DNA of 64,000 bases, taken from Squalus acanthias. Its lineage: Eukaryota. How positions within the stretch are numbered: the stretch's first letter is position 1; each line of letters opens with the position of its first letter. The notes beneath the pieces are model-generated. The model saw only the letters and a program-made list of their open reading frames with translations. It did not search any database and was not told the origin of the DNA. Below are positions 4,156 to 61,775 of the stretch, piece by piece. The stretch is taken from contig CM059432.1 of the NCBI GenBank assembly GCA_030390025.1, forward strand, positions 10,540,001 through 10,604,000, in the 5' to 3' direction. A program made the translations under genes and the position numbers.

Positions 4156-6583
4156 CCAGCATCTGCAGTATTTTATTTTTGTTTTAGATTAACACTGGTC
4201 TTGGTGTAGTGTAAACACAGTTCTGGAGAGACAATATGGAAGAGGCATGACGTTAGCACGCTGCCACATGTTCAGTGTTCCTCTGCTGCTGAATTCCAGA
4301 GTCTGCAGTTTCAGACCTCGCTCAGTGTTGTTTGGTCAACCATTGTGGATAAATACTGCCTTCTACTTAAAACTCCGAGTCACGTATCACTAACCATATT
4401 CAAAATATAGAATTCTCTGCTGTCGCTCTGGAGTACGGAAAGTGTTCAACTAAATTTATTTCTCCTTAAGCTGATTATTTGAGCGACTGCAATCAGACAG
4501 CGGCAAATGAGATTCACATCCCTTCAGAGTTTCAATAAATTGGGTGGATTTACCCATTATAGTACAAATTGTGCCCAGCACAATAGAAGGAGTGGGTTTA
4601 ATTTACCAAATGACCTGTTCTTTTTCACATTTTGTTATATTTTATAAATGTATTTGCTTTCCTGTTGTCTAAAATGCTTTCTTTTTTTTTGATGTAACCC
4701 TGCTTACCTTGAGGCAAGGTAACATTATTGAGAGAGAAAGAAAAATCTTAGACCCTATCCTGGGAATATTAACTATTGGGTAGATTTTTTCCTAAGGTAG
4801 CCATAGTTTTGCTTTAATATCATGGTCATGTTCTCCTGCTTTCCCTGACTTCTTTTCTGTTCATGCGTTGAATCCAACTGTTGCTTGAGTCCTTGAACTT
4901 TGCCACAAAAAAAATGATTAGCAATTTGACGAGTTAATTATCATCTCTCCAAAGATAAGGTTTCCATGGTGCCTCCCACTGGGGTTGGAAATGTAATTCT
5001 TTTCTTGCAATTCCATTGAACTCTTACAATTACATTACATCGAATTACGTGGAACGTGCAGCACAGGAGCAGGCCATTTTTGCCCAACCGGTCCCTGCCG
5101 GTGTTTATGCTCCACACGAGCCTCCTCCGACCCCTCTTCATCTCACCCTATCAACAGATCCTTCTCTTCCTTCCTCCCTCATGTGTTTATCTAGTTTCCC
5201 CTTAAATGCATCTATACTATTCGCCTCAACCACTCCCTGTGGTAGCGAGTTCCACATTCTCACCGCTCTCTGGGTAAAGAAGTTTCTCCTGAATTCCCTA
5301 TTGCAATTATTAGTGACTATCTTATATTTATGTCTCCTAGTTTTGGTCTCCTCCCTCCCAAACATCTCTATCCTTGGCCCCCTACAATTTCTCATCTACA
5401 TGCTGCCCCTCGGCGACATCATTGATTTCGCTCCTGTGAAGCGCCATGGAACATTTTACTACGTTAAAGGCGCTATATAAATGCAAGTTGTTGTTGTTGT
5501 TTTCTTTATGTACGGTGGGATGTAAGGAATAGGGCGATCAGACTAAATTGTGAGTCTTTCCCTCCAATTTATCTCCCATGGCTCTTCTCTCCTGAAGGTG
5601 CTAACCCCTCCCTGGGTACCGTTACATGCATTACTCCCTGGCACCTTGCCCAACTGGCCATTATTTAGCCATCAATCTTGACCAGTGAAGGCAGGGTAGC
5701 AGCAGAATGGGACTTCCGCTCGTCACTGTGAGTCCACCATGACCGTGACCCATTTTCCTGGATCGGGGTTCGTCTGGAATGTAGGGGCCGGGCTCTGAGC
5801 AGAATCCCCGCCACCAAAAGGCAGCCAGCTGCTGCCAAGGAAGGGACATCTGGCAGTGCTGAAGCAGGACAGGCATCCAAAGGTGGGCGGACCGTTTAAA
5901 AAGGACAGAAAATGCCCCGAAGGTGCAGGAGGGGATTTGGAGTGTTTTAGGCCTCGGACTGGACCAAGGACTGAAAAGATAAGGGACTGAGGTCTAATTG
6001 GAGGGAGAGAGGTTTCCACATCTGGGCGCTTTCCCTCCTCAAAGAGACGTCAGCGGACGTTTACGATTTTTATTGCAAGTTTCAAATCTAAACCTTTTGA
6101 TCTCACGCGGGACTTTGCTGCTCAAAGAAGGTTATCATGGAGTATTTTCTGTATTACGTAACTTTTTAAAATATGATCATTCTCAGGGCGTGGGTGTCGC
6201 TGGCAAGGCCGGCACTTGTTGCCCGTCCCTAGGTGCCCCTGAGAAGGTGGTGGTGGGCTACCGCCATCTTGAACCGTTGCAGGTACTCCCATAATGCTTA
6301 GCAGTTGGATACGACCGAGTGGCTTTTCTCAGCCGCCTCAGAGGGAAGTTAAGAGTCAACCACATTAATGTGGGACTAGAGTCACATACAAACCAGACTG
6401 CGTAAGGTTCTAGGACATTAGTGAACTGGTTGGGTCCTGGTGGGACTTGAATTCACACGCTTTAGCTGATTAGTTCAGATTTACATGGATTGCTAGTCCA
6501 GTAACATAACCACTACACTACCCTAAGAAAAAAATGAGAAGTCGCACAACACCAGGTTATAGTCCAACAGATTTATTTAAAAT

Positions 6584-6619
6584 TACAAGCTTTCGGAGCT
6601 GTCGCCCCTTCTTCAGGTA
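6584..6619 (-). ncRNA. Hammerhead ribozyme motif in the inverted 5' pLTR copy
   Basis: Exact reverse complement of 8966-9001. Confidence 0.72.
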
Positions 6620-6780
6620 GGGTAGCTGTGAGAGAATCTCCCAGAATTCACAATATAAACACAGAAAAAATGTATTCAAATCTTTCCCTACATCAAAGAC
6701 ACACTAAGAGCACAGCCAAGACAATGCGATGTGTCCCAGGAGGTCCAACGTGTCAAAACACCTGCTGGCTGCATATCCTC

Positions 6781-8754
6781 AATTTGGACCCCTCCGGAGG
6801 GTCGCAGCCCTAAGCTTGACATGTATGCTCAAGCTGTCAGGAAATGCATCAACGCCAGATTCATCAGCCGTACTCACAAGACAGTCCAGAATGTCACCCG
6901 AGCACAACGCAACGCCATCCACGCTCTCAAGACCAACCGCAACATCGTCATCAAACCAGCGGACAAAGGAGGAGCCATCGTCATACAGAACAGAATGGAC
7001 TATTGCAAAGAAGCATACCGACAACTGGACAACCAGGAACACTACAGACAGCTACCCGCAAATCCGACCAAAGAACACACCCGCCAACTCAATAGACTGA
7101 TCAAGACCTTCGATCCAGACCTTCAAAACATCCTACACGCTCTCATCCCACGTACTCCCCGCGTAGGAGACTTTTACTGCCTCCCAAAGATACACAAAGC
7201 CAACACACCCGGACGTCCTATCGTATCAGGCAACGGAACCCTGTGTGAGAACCTCTCTGGGTACGTCGAGGGCATCCTGAAACCCATCGTACAGGGAACC
7301 CCCAGCTTCTGTCGCGACACTACAGACTTCTTGCAGAAACTCAGCACCCATGGACCAGTTGAACCAGGAACACTCCTCGTCACGATGGACGTATCGGCAC
7401 TCTACACCAATATCCCCCACAATGACGGCATCGCTGCGACAGCCTCAGTACTCAACACCAACAACAGCCAATCTCCAGACGCCATCCTACAACTCATCCG
7501 CTTCATCCTTGACCACAATGTCTTCACCTTCGACAACCATTTTTTTACCCAAACACACGGAACAGCCATGGGGACCAAATTCGCACCCCAATACGCCAAC
7601 ATCTTCATGCACAAGTTCGAGCAAGACTTCTTCGCTGCACAGGACCTCCAACCAACGCTGTACACCAGATACATCGACGACATCTTCTTCCTTTGGACCC
7701 ACGGCGAAGGATCACTGAAAGGACTACACGATAGCATCAACAGGTTCCATCCCACCATCAAACTCACCATGGACTACTCCTCAGAATCGGTTTCATTCTT
7801 GGACACACGAATCTCCATCAAAGACGGACGCCTCAGCACTTCACTCTACCGCAAGCCCACGGACAACCTCACGATGCTCCACTTCTCCAGCTTCCACCCC
7901 AACCACGTTAAAGAAGCCATCCCCTATGGACAAGCCCTGCGAATACACAGGATCTGCTCAGACGAGGAGGAACGCGATGGACACCTACGGACACTGAAAG
8001 ACGCCCTCGTAAGAACGGGATATGACGCTCGACTCGTCGATCGACAGTTCCGACGGGCCACAGCGAAAAACCGCATAGACCTCCTCAGAAGACGAACACG
8101 GGACACAACCAACAGAGTACCCTACGTCGTCCAGTACTTCCCCGGAGCGGAAAAACTACGCCATGTTCTTCGCAGCCTTCAACATGTCATCGATGACGAC
8201 GAACACCTTGCTAAGGCCATCCCCACGCCTCCACTACTCGCCTTCAAGCAGCCGCCTAACCTCAAAAGTACCATCGTTCGCAGCAGATTACCCATCTTTC
8301 AGGAGAACAGCAACCACGACACCACACAACCCTGCCACGGCAACCTCTGCAAGACATGCCAGATCATGGACACAGATACCATCATCACACGTGAGGACAC
8401 TACCCACCAGGTACATGGTACATAATCAGTGACTCGGCCAACGTTGTCTACCTGATACGTTGCAGTAAAGGATGCCCCAGAGCATGGTACATCGGCGAGA
8501 CCATGCAGACACTGAGACAACGTATGAACGGACACCGCGCAACAATCGCCAGGCAGGAGGGTTGCCTCCCAGTCGGGGAACACTTCAGCAGTCAGGGGCA
8601 TTCAGCCTCGGATCTGCGGGTAAGCGTTCTCCAAGGCGGCCTTCGGGATACATGACAGCGCAAAATCATAGAGCAGAAACTGATAGCCAAGTTCCGCACT
8701 CATGAGGATGGCCTCAATCGCGATATTGGGTTCATGTCACGATACAGAACGTGA
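6781..8754 (+). pseudogene. PLE ORF: open reverse-transcriptase frame plus disrupted GIY-YIG endonuclease
   Basis: PLE RT motifs WTPP.GR, IKPADKGG, FYCLPKIHK, GRPIVS, MDVSALYTNIP, GTAMG, YTRYIDDIF, FLD, YRKPTD. A TAA at 8423-8425 plus a 1-nt frameshift is followed from 8431 by DSANVVYLIRC..WYIGETMQTLRQRMNGH..HF..E.KLI....GLNRD, with an internal TGA at 8653-8655 and a stop at 8752-8754. Confidence 0.9.
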
Positions 8755-8965
8755 CTTGACATCATGGCCGGTCTTTCCAGGTTTTTTTTTTAAACCCAAA
8801 TGGAGAGGATATGCAGCCAGCAGGTGTTTTGACACGTTGGACCCCCTGGGACACATCTCATTGTCTTGGCTGTGCTCTTAGTGTGTCTTTGATGTAGGGA
8901 AAGATTTGAATACATTTTTCCTGTGTTTATATTGTGAATTCTGGGAGATTCTCTCACAGCTACCC

Positions 8966-9001
8966 TACCTGAAGAAGGGGCGACAGCTCCGAAAGCTTGT
9001 A
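8966..9001 (+). ncRNA. Minimal type-I hammerhead ribozyme motif in the PLE-A 3' pLTR
   Basis: UAC-CUGAAGA-A-GGGGC(GACA)GCUCC-GAAA-GC-UU-GUA. It has the conserved CUGAnGA and GAAA boxes, a 5-bp helix II, a palindromic AGCU helix III and a UAC/GUA helix I. Confidence 0.75.
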
Positions 9002-9735
9002 ATTTTAAATAAATCTGTTGGACTATAACCTGGTGTAGTGCGACTTCTCATTTTTGTCCACCCAGTCCAACGCCGGCATCTCCACATCATACCCTAAGAA
9101 AGACTTACATTTATACAGCGCCTTTCACGACCACCGGACGTCTCAAAGCGCTTTACAGCCAATGAAGCATTTTTTTGGAGTGTAGTCACTGTTGTAATGT
9201 GGGAAACGCGGCAGCCAATTTGCGCACAGCAAGCTCCCAAAAACAGTAATTAGATAATGACCAGATAATCTGGTTGTGTGATGTTGATTGAGGGGATAAA
9301 TATTGGCCAGGACACCAGGGATAACTCCCCTGCTCTTCTTCGAAATAGTGCCATGGGATCTTTTACGTCCACCTGAGAGAGCAGACGGGGCCTCGGTTTA
9401 ACGCCTCATCCGAAAGACGGCACCTCCGACAGTGCAGCGCTCCTCAGTACTGCACTGGAGCGTCAGCCTAGCTTTAATATGCTCAAGTCTCTGGAGTGGG
9501 ACTTGAACCCAGAACCTTCTGACCCAGAGGCGAGAGTGCTACCCACTGAGCCACAGCTGACACAGACCTGCCCATTCTATGTCTTCTAATTGTCAATGGT
9601 AATGTGGAAACACTCTGAATGTAAAAGGCTCTCATTTTGATACTCTTTAGAGGGCATAAATTGCACAATGTTTGCAGTGGTCATATGCTTTTGATACCTT
9701 GTACGTACAATGCCATTTTTGCCTAATTCTACCCA

Positions 9736-33973: not shown

Positions 33974-34491
33974 AAATAAAAACAGAAAATGCTGGAAATA
34001 CTCAGCAGGTCAGGCAGCATCTGTGGAGAGAGAAAGCGGGTTAACCTTTCAGGCCGATGACCTTTCGTCAGAGCTGGGAAAAGATAGAGATGTAACAGAT
34101 TTTAAGCAAATGCAGGGGCAGGGAAAGGTGGGAGGGGAGGAAAGAACAAAAGGGGAGGCCAGTGAGAGGGTAGAAGGCAGGAGAGATTAAATGACAAAAG
34201 GGATAATAGTGCAAGGCGAAAGGAGATGGTGATGGGACAAGTAAAGAAACAAAAGATGGGTCTAGAGGAGGTGTAAATGGGAATATCAGAATCAACAACA
34301 GCTGCCATCTGGAAAAATGAGGGCAGAGGTTATGGTCTGAAATTGTTGCACTCAATGTTGAGTCCAGAAGGCTGTAAAGTGCCTAATCGAAAGATGAGCT
34401 GCTGTTCCTCGAGCTTACGTTGAGGTCCATTGGAACAGTGTAGGAGGCTGAGGACAGAGAGGCCAGAGTGGAAGCGGGGCGGAGAATTAAA
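33974..34491 (-). mobile_element. PLE family B 3' fragment (GIY-YIG C-terminus plus pLTR with degenerate hammerhead)
   Basis: The - strand reads FNSPPRFHSGLSVLSLLHCSNGPQRKLEEQQLIFRLGTLQPSGLNIECNNFRP*. The pLTR matches 58044-58626. CUGACGA..GAAA occurs at about 34040-34075 (-). Confidence 0.8.
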
Positions 34492-54958: not shown

Positions 54959-55987
54959 ATGGCAGGACTTAACATCTCACTGGACGCAGATGCCACCGTC
55001 TCTCCGCAGGCAGATGCCACCGTCACTCCATGGCTGCCAAACAGGACGGTGCCTGAAGTAAACGGCAGCAGTCAGGTGAACGTGAGCGCTGTGAAGGAGT
55101 GCACCCAAATCCCAATCCCCACCGAGGTGTATCTCATTCTTGCAGGAATAAGTCTGCTCGAAAACCTGCTGGTAATCGTTGCAGTGATCAAAAACAGGAA
55201 TCTGCACTCTCCTATGTACTTCTTCATCTGCAGTTTAGCTGTTTCAGACATTCTGCTAAGCTTGACCAAGGCCTGGGAAGCAATTACAATGTCCATAACA
55301 CATCACAATGAACATCTGTTCGCCGGTGCCGTGCTGGAAAGATTAGATGATGTGTATGACTCATTATTGTGCATTTCTTTCATAGCCTCCATTTTCAACT
55401 TGGCAGCAATCACGACCGACAGATACATAACTATTTTCCATGCTTTGCGTTACCACAACATCATGACAGGAAGGCGAGTAGCTCTCATCATTGCAGGGAT
55501 ATGGGTCTTTTGTACTTTTACTGGCATCATCATGATCGCTTTTGCCCGGTATTACGCCATTGTTAGCTTCTTTATTATACTGTTCTTCTTAACATTGGTT
55601 CTAATTGTATCCCTTTACTTATACATGTTCCTGTTGGCTCAAATGCATGCAAGGCGGATTAGAACCCTTCCGGGTCACGCAGCTCATCGAAGAACCAATT
55701 TTAAAGGAGCCCTCACAATAACTATCCTCCTCGGGATATTTGTTGCCTGTTGGGCCCCATTTTGCCTACACCTCACTCTCTTCCTATTCTGTCCCTCAAA
55801 CCCATACTGTACATGCTTTATATCACTCTTTCAGGTTGATCTAATCTTCATCATGTGCCACTCAATCATTGACCCTCTTATTTACGCATTCCGAAGTCCT
55901 GAATTATGCGCTACTTTTAAGAAAATGGTATGTTGTTTCAGAAGACGGAGCTACTTTCAAGGCTCAGCCAGTTTTTCTAATGACTAG
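54959..55987 (+). CDS. mc2r: Melanocortin 2 receptor (ACTH receptor), single coding exon, 342 aa
   Basis: Class-A GPCR with 7 hydrophobic segments and melanocortin-receptor motifs: ENLLVIVAVIKNRNLHSPMYFFICSLAVSD, DRYITIFHALRYH, CWAPF, CPSNPYC, DPLIYAFRS. MC2R-type features are RSPEL (not RSQE), the DD..DSL TM3 start and a Lys in TM2. The N-terminus has sequons NIS, NRT, NGS and NVS. ATG at 54959, TAG ending at 55987. Confidence 0.9.
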   Translation: MAGLNISLDADATVSPQADATVTPWLPNRTVPEVNGSSQVNVSAVKECTQIPIPTEVYLILAGISLLENLLVIVAVIKNRNLHSPMYFFICSLAVSDILLSLTKAWEAITMSITHHNEHLFAGAVLERLDDVYDSLLCISFIASIFNLAAITTDRYITIFHALRYHNIMTGRRVALIIAGIWVFCTFTGIIMIAFARYYAIVSFFIILFFLTLVLIVSLYLYMFLLAQMHARRIRTLPGHAAHRRTNFKGALTITILLGIFVACWAPFCLHLTLFLFCPSNPYCTCFISLFQVDLIFIMCHSIIDPLIYAFRSPELCATFKKMVCCFRRRSYFQGSASFSND

Positions 55988-57566: not shown

Positions 57567-57901
57567 AAAAACAGAAAACGCTGGAAATACTCAGCGGGTG
57601 GAGCGAGAAACAAGGGTTAATGGCCCAGCTGCTGATGACCTTTCGTCAGAACCGAAAAAAAGTTCGAGATGTAACAGGTTTTCAGCAAGTACAGAACAAG
57701 GTAAAAGAGACGAATGGAAATCCAGTCAGGGAGAAGAGCGGAACTTCATCGAGGTGGGCATTCCTGGAAGAGAGGTGGCAGTGAACCAAACACTAATACG
57801 AAAACCAAAATACTTTCCACAGATGCTGCCCGACCGGCTGAGTATTTCCAGCATTTTTCTGTTTTCATTTCAGATTTCCAGCATCGGTAGGATTTTGCTT
57901 T
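57567..57901. mobile_element. Degenerate PLE family B pLTR remnant, inverted ends
   Basis: Begins aaaacagaaaacgctggaaatactcagc and ends ctgagtatttccagcatttttctgttttcatttcagatttccagcat, matching the family B terminus. Confidence 0.6.
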
Positions 57902-58043
57902 GAGTCAGTTTGAAATCTGCCCTGCGGTATCCTTTAGTGGCCCCTATAATGATCCTTAATGGTCTTCTGACACAGCTGAAAAAATCTTTGCTGTTACTGC
58001 CACAATTACGCACCATCTTCTGTTCCAGAGGTCTCTTTTTATG

Positions 58044-58626
58044 CAAAAGCAAAATACTGCGGATGCTGGAAATCTGAAATAAAAACAGAAAATGCTGGAA
58101 ACACTCAGCAGGTCAGGCAGCATCTGTGGAGAGAGAAACAGAGTTAACGTTTCAGGTCGATGACCCTTCGTCAGAACTGGAAAAGGCACTTTACAGCCTT
58201 CTGGACTCAACATAGAGTTCAACAATTTCAGATCATAACCTCTGCCCCTATCTTTTTTTCCATTTATTTATTTATTTATTTTCTCTCTCTCTTTCTCTCT
58301 CTCACATGGCAGCTGTCTTTCATTCTGCCAGTGCCATTTACACTTCATCTAGAGCCATCCTTTGTTTCTTAACTTGTCCCATTACCATCTCCTTTTGCCT
58401 TACACCATCATTTCTTTTGTCTGTTAATCTCTCCTGCCTCCATCCTATCACAGACCTTCACTTTTGTTCTGTCCTCCCCTCCCCCCTTTCCCTGCCCCTA
58501 CACTTGCTTAAAAACCTGTTCCATCTCCAACTTTTTCCAGTTCTGACGAAGGGTCATCGACCTGAAACGTTAACTCTGTTTCTCTCTCTCCACAGATGCT
58601 GCCTGGCCCGCTGAGTATTTCCAGCA
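58044..58626. mobile_element. Penelope-like element (family B), short copy with inverted pLTRs and 13-bp TSD
   Basis: About 58093-58184 is inverted relative to about 58533-58626. The GIY-YIG C-terminus GTLQPSGLNIEFNNFRS* starts at 58185 (+). The TSD is GTCTC(T/C)TTTTATG at 58031-58043 and 58627-58639. Confidence 0.85.
58539..58575 (+). ncRNA. Minimal hammerhead ribozyme motif, PLE family B (inverted copy at 58142-58178, - strand)
   Basis: AGUU-CUGACGA-A-GGGUC(AUC)GACCU-GAAA-CG-UU-AACU. Same core as family A, with different but still pairing helices and a palindromic ACGU helix III. Confidence 0.78.
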
Positions 58627-59059
58627 GTCTCCTTTTATGGCTGTTTTTGTCTCCCTCAATTGCATGCGATACTTTGCCCTGTTCTCCTGCGAGTTCAATT
58701 CCTTAAGTGTGCAGAATGCCTTCTGTTTCAATCTGATTTGCCTCTGCACGTTCCTTGTCAACCAGAATGGCTTTATTTTGTCATGTGGCTTTCTTTTTAA
58801 CCATTGGGACATACATGACTTCACTCTGTTTGATAATGGTTTTAAACAGAACCCATTTGCCCTCAGTACTTAATTCCCACTACTTGATTGAGAGGAAGTG
58901 AGGTGAAAGGGCCAACAGAAAACAGCCACATTGATACTAATGCAAGTAATGATTTTAAAAATCAATAAAATTAATTTAATTTTTGCATAATATTGCTGTA
59001 GCAGTAAGGGTGCTATATACACAGTGATTATATTGAAAGCTAGCACTCCCTGCTCTAAA

Positions 59060-59856: not shown

Positions 59857-61208
59857 CAGTACACACCAAACCGTTAGATTTGAGAGGTCATTTTCTGAGG
59901 CTAACTCCGAGCACTACCCATGACTTTTCGACCTTTGATGCACTTCTGATGGGTGAGGCTCACTGTTGGACTCCCCTTAAAGTTTCCATCATTGTGCAAA
60001 TGGCGAGTGTTTCACAGGAGTAAATCGATAGTCGGCCAGTCTCTAAATCTGCTGTCCAGGAAGTCAGTAATGTGGTTGTAATTTTCTGAGTACCCGCTGC
60101 CAACAAGGAACCTCATACACTGGCGGGAAAAGATGGGCGATGTTTGTCATTTTCCATCCAACGCCCGCACAGTAGATGTGTTAGAAAGCGGACAGTGCCA
60201 GCTACCAGCAGAAGCAATTGCAGAGCCAACTCATGACCCAGCACAAGGAGGTATATAGGGGCACTTGAATCTCAAGTGGCTCCCGATGAAACTCTGCAGC
60301 CAGTTAGCACACTTGCCCCATCCATTAGGGAAATGCAGGTTAGGTGTTAGAATTTACGCACAATATCCTAAGTGGAAGCACCATGGGAAAAGAGACTAAC
60401 ATCACTGATACATGACACCCCTTGCTGGAACATGGGTCAACCAACACCAATCACCTACGTATACCTTGCTCACGTTGCCATTACTCACGTATGAACCGTG
60501 ACAGTGAGCCCCAGCCAATCCCAATCTTATCCTCACCCAACACCCATCCATAACTGCTTCCACCAGGCAATTCTGCATAGTGATCAGACAGGGTGAGCTG
60601 GGTCAGAAGTTGGTATTGTTTAATTTAACACGTTTGACTATAAAAAAGCTTGGGATGCTCTAACCTGCAGGGCTACGGACCAAGAGCTGGGAAGTGGGAT
60701 GAGGCTGGATAGCTCTTTGTTGGCCGGCGCGGACACAATGGGCCGAAATGGCCTCACTCCGTGCTGTAACTTTCTATGATTCTATGATAATTCTGGCTGA
60801 TTGTGCCTTCTATAATCCGCCCTCCTGTCTCTGAAATCACATAACTCAGCACGAACCCACCTTGGTAAGTGTGGCTCAGAGACACCAACCCATTAAGGAA
60901 CCATCATTTTCTTTCAAAATACCCAAAATGATGATTGGCAAAATGAGGTTATTATGCAACCAGTATTGTAATTACATACTTGAAGGGAAAACATTTGCAG
61001 GGTTATGGGGAAAGAGCGGGGGGGAGTGGGATTAATTGGAGAGCTCTTTCAAAGAGCCGGCACAGGCACGATGGGCTGAATGGCCTCCTTCTGTGCCGTA
61101 TGATTTACGCTCCCTGTTCAGACAGGGTGAGCTGGGTCAGAAGGTGGTATCGTTTAATTTAGCATGTTTGACTACAAAAAGCTTTAGAGAACATTATCTT
61201 CAAATTTG

Positions 61209-61426
61209 ATGATGTGGAAATGCCGGTGTTGGACTGGGGTGAACAAATGTGAGAAGTCGCACAACACCAGGTTATAGTCCAACAGCTTTATTTGAAATCA
61301 CAAGCTTTCGGAGCGCTGCTCCTTCGTCAGGTGAAGTCACCTGACGAAGGAGCAGCGCTCCGAAAGCTTGTGATTTCAAATAAAGCTGTTGGACTATAAC
61401 CTGGTGTTGTGCGACTTCTCACATTT
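61209..61426. mobile_element. Palindromic pLTR-only PLE (family A relative) with TSD
   Basis: Perfect 90-bp inverted arms (61245-61334 and 61337-61426) with a 2-nt spacer. The arms are homologous to the 8966-9055 pLTR, and the left arm has the additional ~35-nt terminal extension. TTCAAATTTGATG occurs at 61199-61211 and 61425-61437. Confidence 0.9.
61333..61377 (+). ncRNA. Minimal type-I hammerhead ribozyme motif (mirror copy on the - strand at about 61298-61334)
   Basis: GAAGUCAC-CUGACGA-A-GGAGC(AGC)GCUCC-GAAA-GC-UU-GUGAUUUC gives an 8-bp helix I, a 5-bp helix II and an intact core. Confidence 0.8.
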
Positions 61427-61775
61427 CAAATTTGATGTTACGCGTATTATCTATCGTTGTTGTCAACCCATATATTTGTTACAATTTGGATTATTGATAA
61501 TTTATGTAGAATCAGCAACATGTTGTTAAAAGTACTACAGACTGCCAGCTTTGTTTTACATAATGGCATGACTGAACTCCATCATTGTAATTGAAAGCAA
61601 TTCATTCATATTCTGCTCATCTATTTCGCACTTGATTTTTAATTCAACTATTAGACAGCCCCGGTGCACGAAGAGGGCTCGCCATTCTTGCTTTGTGCTT
61701 GTCTACTAAGCGAATGTTCCATAATATTTACATTTCATTTAAATTTGCATGAAGGTATATTTAGCCACAATTTCA

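Follow-up and report, generated by a model that had tools for sequence, protein, structure and literature searches.

The insertion at positions 61199–61437 of the window (the whole stretch of DNA analysed here, 64,000 nucleotides long) is a Penelope insertion with inverted pLTRs that has been cut down to its two leaders, and it is most likely dead. The 218-base insert is one of thousands of short Penelope stubs, likely formed when two DNA copies of the start of the element's RNA were joined head to head, and the copy in the window is probably a dead by-product, not a ribozyme that spreads by itself. As a single locus it is ordinary, and nothing points to a function close to the melanocortin receptor gene; the interest lies in the bearing of the family on the replication mechanism, not in 61199–61437. 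Judged from sequence comparison, the family counts favour priming from both ends of the target on a capped sense RNA over the published proposal of antisense self-priming, because tailed and tailless arms are strictly paired, either arm can be the longer one, solo tailless arms have TSDs of their own, and an extra G occurs at a fixed start.

The arms at 61245–61334 and 61337–61426 were complementary at 90/90 positions across a 2-nt spacer, and a 13-nt direct repeat at 61199–61211 and 61425–61437 bracketed the hairpin insert. In this repeat-rich window, 1,500 pairs drawn at random at the same spacing gave 18 chance matches of at least 13 nt. A 507-nt contig from run X22 (organism I), ~93% identical to the window in the flank, spanned 61109–61211 and, with the repeat present once, passed directly into the right flank. 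A single copy in organism I represents the empty site, so that 61199–61437 is a true insertion with an exact 13-bp TSD and is younger than the split from that organism. X22 was the informative run in this look-up; runs X23, X5 and X19 had no left-flank cover and were uninformative. These results bear out the description in an earlier note on this DNA (an insert of ~218 bp, two perfect 90-bp arms, a 2-nt gap and a ~13-bp TSD), and its view of a recent insertion is supported in the sense of fairly recent. The interior from TSD to TSD is 213 bp whereas the match to the element is 218 bp, because 3 + 2 nt of the TSD copies also match the element ends.

On the plus strand, the left TSD copy shares its last 3 nt with the end of the tailed arm, where the target may have paired as a primer. 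The tailed arm (61209–61338, minus strand) represents the leader from +129 to +1, which lies at 61337, and is followed by a non-parental base, a minus-strand G at 61338 that may be a copy of the cap. The insert is asymmetric, since the 36-nt Penelope tail (61209–61244, minus strand; +94 to +129), which ends at the start codon of the ORF, is found on the left side only. A minimal type-I hammerhead with the parental 4-bp helix I occupies 61298–61334 of the minus strand. The head-to-head junction at 61335–61338 consists of 2 unpaired nt and a 2-nt overlap at 61337–61338, which is +1/−1 of the tailed arm and also +4/+5 of the tailless one. The tailless arm (61337–61426, plus strand) represents the leader from +4 to +93, and its last 2 nt are the first 2 nt of the right TSD copy (61425–61437, plus strand). 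The second minimal type-I hammerhead spans 61333–61377 on the plus strand, where the junction formally lengthens helix I to 8 bp.

By extending the tail into flanking sequence, we reached a parent element, L180, in which 154-bp direct pLTRs surround an open frame of 891 aa (L180:3754–6426, minus strand) matching RVT_1 at E 2.8e-09. A GIY-YIG-like motif was read by eye at residues 790–820 of the L180 protein, without profile or PDB support, and a search of solved structures with the C-terminal 183 aa gave no match. Positions are numbered with the A of an initiator-like motif as +1, on an initiator consensus that we take to apply here. By this numbering, a TATA-like box lies ~30 nt before +1, the hammerhead extends from +4 to +40, the tail reaches ~+129 and the ORF begins at +128. 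In the upstream pLTR of L180, just 16 nt precede +1, and the TATA-like box is therefore missing. Comparison with L180 showed that the stub contains neither a TATA box nor an ORF. The arms in the window were closest to the L180 type, with 127/129 (tailed) and 90/90 (tailless) identical positions, and the Penelope copy at 6519–9101 of the window was only 88–90% identical to them in the pLTR. On these identities, the L180 type is the true parent type of the insert; the earlier note was right about a Penelope pLTR origin, and the window's own copy belongs to a sister subfamily. The parental ORF with direct pLTRs, the one-sided 36-nt tail and the A+T-rich TSD are together those of an endonuclease-positive Penelope-like insertion.

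The sister-subfamily copy at 6519–9101 has the same build on a larger scale, with a tailed pLTR, an RT domain, a 254-nt inverted tailless arm and a 12-bp TSD; its ORF is 5′-truncated and has an early stop near 8423–8425. Hammerhead-like boxes were also observed in another repeat family, at 58039–58636, 33977–34384 and 57632–57657, the first of which includes 56-nt perfect inverted arms (58129–58184 and 58533–58588) that are 348 nt apart. This repeat is probably a further Penelope-like family that also tends to stand head to head. Words of the family at L058:1200–1592 were present at shares of 0.56–0.73 in sequence runs of organisms A, B, H, I and J, which indicates that several species have copies very similar to these. 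By its repeat content, the host appears to be a cartilaginous fish. A single-exon melanocortin receptor gene lies at ~54959–55987, ~5.2 kb upstream of the insert. Its best matches among solved structures were MC5R, followed by MC2R and MC4R; the distance of ~5 kb given in the earlier note therefore stands, but its assignment of the gene to mc2r does not agree with the higher score of MC5R.

A motif scan placed hammerhead boxes at 61341–61365 (plus strand) and 61330–61306 (minus strand), confirming one motif on each strand. In the scan and in folding, both consisted of the core boxes with helix I and helix II and no helix III, as in minimal type-I hammerheads. With a hammerhead numbering and cut rule that we assumed, cleavage is predicted after 61369 on the plus strand and at 61302/61301 on the minus strand. 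The 8-bp helix I reported for the plus strand does form in computation, where the isolated motif folds at −15.8 kcal/mol; the parental helix I is 4 bp, and the longer version is a by-product of the junction. An Rfam scan of the insert gave no hammerhead match at E up to 1. Rfam miRNA-hairpin models matched only below threshold and reflect the hairpin shape, and a miRNA precursor was rejected as a candidate.

The complete insert folds at −184.6 kcal/mol, compared with −120.4 kcal/mol when the plus-strand ribozyme is forced, a penalty of 64 kcal/mol. The competition between hairpin and self-cleaving fold expected by the earlier note is thus seen in computation, with the duplex favoured, and in a transcript across the whole insert both ribozymes are predicted to be buried in the 90-bp duplex and inactive. 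Co-transcriptional folding would be of no help on the plus strand because the complementary arm is transcribed first. A dimer co-fold of two 50-nt leaders resulted in a mixed structure.

Arms that begin at the predicted cut numbered 420, versus 134 at one control position. When 30 of the cut-site arms were inspected (L183–L212), 8 were explained by a 4-nt microhomology, 2 were false starts and five were joined straight to flanking DNA; inspection of the control set revealed 4 tandem duplicates and 2 false starts. By hand count, ends at +37 were present in 17 of the 100 deeper-truncation matches listed, and the 4-nt microhomology favours that site. The approximately threefold excess of arms at the predicted cut is a hint of a trace of ribozyme cutting. 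Short head-to-head junctions near the start gave 5,414 matches versus 562 for deeper truncations (strand matches, with some loci counted twice), indicating that most templates were uncut. At ~7.56 Mb of C1, two short hairpins (L050/L051) lie 1.2 kb apart in inverted orientation, and the tailed arms of both are cut to +37.

The structure is abundant: a 41-mer of the arm had 12,626 exact occurrences in the genome, and the 36-nt junction had 342. Of 2,129 candidates, the 40 that were scored, one of them the window itself, all matched the entire structure at 95–100% identity. Near-identical full copies were recovered at 29 other loci with differing flanks, and the TSD was at least 10 nt in 25/29. 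This set was picked for likeness; exact counts and position-ordered samples were used instead. In 23 of the first 30 junction loci, the tail was on the same side as in the window; 5 had it on the opposite side and 2 had no tail. Three subfamily sites defined five recurrent haplotypes among these loci, which match those of long read-through copies. A hand count of the 100 rows listed, of 5,414 strand matches, gave ~40 junction types in 81 loci; the window junction accounted for 7/81 loci (11 with one-letter variants) and another type for 11. Among 59 hairpins with the window junction, only the three subfamily sites varied jointly in more than three copies, and the two private variants of the copy at 61199–61437 had one occurrence in the genome. 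The fixed polarity and inherited private variants of an independent lineage were not found in these samples of 30–81 loci, nor does the insert have the build of a retrozyme (head-to-tail tandem with at least two consecutive ribozymes on one strand), being head to head with one motif per strand.

As far as sequences can tell, the window junction is one that has formed repeatedly from parental RNA, since it occurs in both polarities, on parental haplotypes, beside many other junction types and with unshared private variants. The ribozyme-only mobile unit suggested in the earlier note is contradicted by the polarities, the five recurrent parental haplotypes and the private variants. Its other suggestion, an extreme truncation product, comes closer to the data than the mobile unit, but the ends are non-random, with a fixed putative RNA start and a frequent extra G. 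The genome search that it proposed did find the same junction with different TSDs (342 junction copies, 25/29 loci with a TSD of their own), but no master lineage.

Palindromes may occasionally be recopied whole or converted. L039 (1340–1640) and L041/L042, ~0.5 Mb apart, have in common a junction with an 85-nt centre and a derived base, and differ in their TSDs. Helix II of the tailed arm differs in one of the two palindromes. That the palindrome with the 85-nt centre replicates widely was considered and rejected, the junction being present in 0/9 further loci.

To describe the ends of the arms across the family, 100 listed arm matches were taken in position order (C1, 0.8–24.5 Mb) and mapped to L180. 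They represented 88 insertions, and an inverted partner lay next to the arm in 64 of these but was absent from 24; the sample includes a few duplicates of single events, and one divergent pair was left unmerged. The 3′ ends were bimodal, with 53/100 at +85–99 and 42/100 at +125–134. One tailed and one tailless arm were present in 64/64 two-arm insertions, of which approximately three duplicate one event. The tailless arm extended further 5′ by at least 5 nt in 26 of the 64 and the tailed arm in 16, and the two were within 4 nt of each other in 22. Tailless arms reached up to 1.9 kb, versus ~0.1 kb for the tailed partner. Simple fold-back of the tailed copy is thereby excluded for the class in which the tailless arm is longer (26/64). 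Seven solo arms started near +1, and, as read by eye, 3/4 of the tailless ones had an 11–12-bp TSD, indicating that the site at +90 primes alone.

TSD length was assessed in 65 short two-arm insertions, drawn from the 30 junction loci and the position-ordered sample: 34 had a TSD of 12–13 nt and 52 one of at least 10 nt, with 70% A+T. The TSDs mostly overlapped both element ends by a few bases, and the starts deduced from these overlaps were +125–131 and +85–90. Arm starts fell between −9 and +4 in 65/100. A G at −1 was found in 15/20 arms starting at +1 and in 0/35 read-through arms (P about 1e-9), and genome-wide the base before +1 was G in 2,631 cases and A in 303. Copying of an mRNA cap would be expected to leave such a non-parental G at −1. 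We also considered a second RNA start, at −73 (80 matches), and rejected it, as it showed no excess of G and 8/9 of its G-bearing loci ran on in parental sequence. At the subfamily site, the two arms agreed in 45/52 insertions and differed in 7/52, where ~29 agreements are expected with random template pairs; the discordant cases exceed the expectation from mutation, suggesting that two templates were used at times.

We propose that the stub quite probably arose in one event, in which both nicked target strands primed, the cDNAs ran off the start of a capped RNA and the two were joined through a 2-nt overlap. The mRNA would be capped and would start at +1 of the pLTR, and the endonuclease nicks would be staggered by 13 nt, as the TSD suggests, leaving two 3′ ends. 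One of these would pair near +126 and the other near +91, which makes the start sites flank the tail; in the window copy, the top strand would have paired through 3 nt at +127–129 and the bottom strand through 2 nt at +92–93. With an RNA starting in the pLTR, each cDNA would be exhausted after ~90–126 nt, having passed the uncut ribozyme, and a C would be added opposite the cap at the RNA end. The two 3′ ends would then anneal via a few bases and be filled in. In the window copy, the last two bases of the tailed cDNA may have annealed to the other copy, with the overhang trimmed to leave the overlap at 61337–61338. The reverse annealing choice would give the opposite polarity, and in long insertions the template would be a read-through RNA with a pLTR at its far end. 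That Penelope-like elements routinely prime at two ends by means of a protein dimer, with a capped, uncut sense RNA and head-to-head joining, seems to us moderately probable.

The G at a single junction is often assignable to either arm, and the cap reading draws on the excess across loci, not on individual cases. The agreement of arms in 45/52 insertions fits one RNA or one active locus, and is also consistent with one arm having been copied from the other, as would happen if priming took place once, at the tail, and the cDNA, on reaching the RNA 5′ end, snapped back and copied ~90 nt of itself, or if an antisense RNA primed itself, with the endonuclease trimming one tail. We regard this origin as unlikely, although its components have precedents in the available portions of the literature, where head-to-head pLTRs were proposed to arise by self-priming on an antisense template (PMC3846280), the tail was attributed to endonuclease resolution (PMC8557442) and R2 proteins were described to snap back following full-length cDNA (PMC11371274). 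For the window copy alone, in which the tailed arm is longer and the arms are identical, snap-back fits, and the tailed arm is likewise longer in 23/28 tailed copies with the same junction. However, even there it requires a 2-bp stem on a 2-nt loop, and 5/28 copies of the window junction have the reverse polarity. Snap-back also does not account for the tailless arm being longer in 26/64 insertions (up to 1.9 kb versus ~0.1 kb), for solo tailless arms with TSDs or for the arms that are discordant in 7/52. Asymmetric deletion at the centre of the palindrome after insertion could mimic some of the cases with a longer tailless arm. As for antisense self-priming, a cap G would imply a sense, capped template.

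Alternatively, palindrome instability could have removed the middle of a longer inverted insertion of Penelope, so that just its pLTR ends remained. Inverted insertions with centres of 0.1–2 kb are known (6519–9101 in the window; L113, L136 and L142), and junctions have short microhomologies; but a deletion is unable to add a non-parental G at −1, and the clustering of breakpoints at the initiator-like site, where solo TSD-flanked arms start too, is left unexplained. We consider such a collapse highly improbable. Whole hairpins could instead be transcribed from one or more masters, retrozyme- or MITE-like, and recopied by the Penelope protein, which would suit the 342 exact junction copies, the 29 full copies with different flanks (25 with a TSD of at least 10 nt), the longer L039/L041 palindrome that was apparently recopied entire and, in the part of PMC3846280 available, the mobilisation of cargo in trans by pLTR sequence alone. 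Such masters are very unlikely to be the source, as the junction exists in both polarities and on five haplotypes matching the subfamilies of long copies, the window junction makes up 7/81 loci among ~40 types with another type commoner, and the 59 hairpins have no variants common to more than three copies beyond the subfamily sites, those of the window occurring once. In addition, the stub has no TATA box and is not a tandem, and the L039/L041 junction was seen in 0/9 further loci.

The stub family bears on the origin of the inverted pLTRs and the one-sided tail of Penelope-like elements, a question left open in the available sections of the papers. It yields exact positions (+1, ~+90 and ~+126) together with an intact parent. 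If priming does occur at two ends, the inverted pLTR, one-sided tail, fixed 12–13-bp TSD and abundance of pLTR-only stubs would all follow from a single mechanism, and the stubs in a genome sequence would be enough to locate the RNA start of an element and, weakly, its ribozyme cut. The stubs likely record how Penelope-like elements copy themselves. Thousands of near-perfect genomic hairpins are also predicted to give rise to double-stranded RNA if transcribed. The architecture of inverted pLTR, tail and TSD is already in print; in the literature searched, which left most subscription journals uncovered, we found no proposal of two-ended priming or a cap G for Penelope-like elements.

As described in the available sections of the cited papers, Pen2a of A. 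vaga and Penelope of D. virilis resemble the stub in having head-to-head pLTRs and a TSD, a one-sided tail of 30–40 nt with an inverted arm ~37 nt shorter, and, like the stub's family, TATA-like and TCACT initiator-like motifs in the pLTR (PMC3846280, PMC8557442, PMC2377424). In contrast to those elements as described there, the present stubs contain no ORF between the arms, number in the thousands and end at the putative start with an extra G. The inversion in the published elements was ascribed to antisense self-priming and the tail to endonuclease resolution (PMC3846280, PMC8557442). In vitro, the protein of Poseidon from Anolis carolinensis (PAc) nicks and extends both strands and takes uncut RNA as template, beginning at two internal RNA sites, one on either side of the tail; the protein is a predicted dimer (PMC11167929, available sections). 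PAc and the present family have in common the layout of an RT with a C-terminal endonuclease, a hammerhead in the pLTR and AT-rich targets; the PAc ORF, however, begins inside the hammerhead, so that the tail lies within it, whereas that of the present family begins at the end of the tail. The available text of that paper states no link between the two start sites and inverted insertions.

According to the available sections of PMC4209133, the minimal hammerheads of metazoan Penelope-like elements need a tandem partner and are weak in vitro, and pairs on opposite strands lie 100–700 bp apart. The stub motifs are like these hammerheads in their 4-bp helix I, the extra base before helix II, the lack of helix III and the palindromic stretch at positions 15–16. 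Unlike the opposite-strand pairs, the two motifs of the stub are ~10 nt apart and perfectly complementary, which makes a tandem dimer impossible. Non-LTR retrozymes, in the portion of the preprint available (bioRxiv 10.64898/2026.07.22.740005), are non-coding, carry a type-I hammerhead and are derived from the pLTRs of Penelope-like elements, as is the stub, and form head-to-tail tandems with two consecutive ribozymes on one strand. The stub differs in its head-to-head arrangement, its single ribozyme per strand and the lack of any sign of a master lineage.

In LINE-1, twin priming is occasional, and its two pieces mostly derive from separate regions of the RNA. The cap is marked by an extra G in LINE-1 insertions and twin priming leads to inversions with discrete TSDs, and, as in the model proposed here for the stub, a second reverse transcription starts from the opposite end of the target and the inner junction shows microhomology (PMC11702581, available sections). 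Unlike in LINE-1, both copies in the stub family come from the same part of the RNA, begin at two fixed starts and are usually found as a pair.
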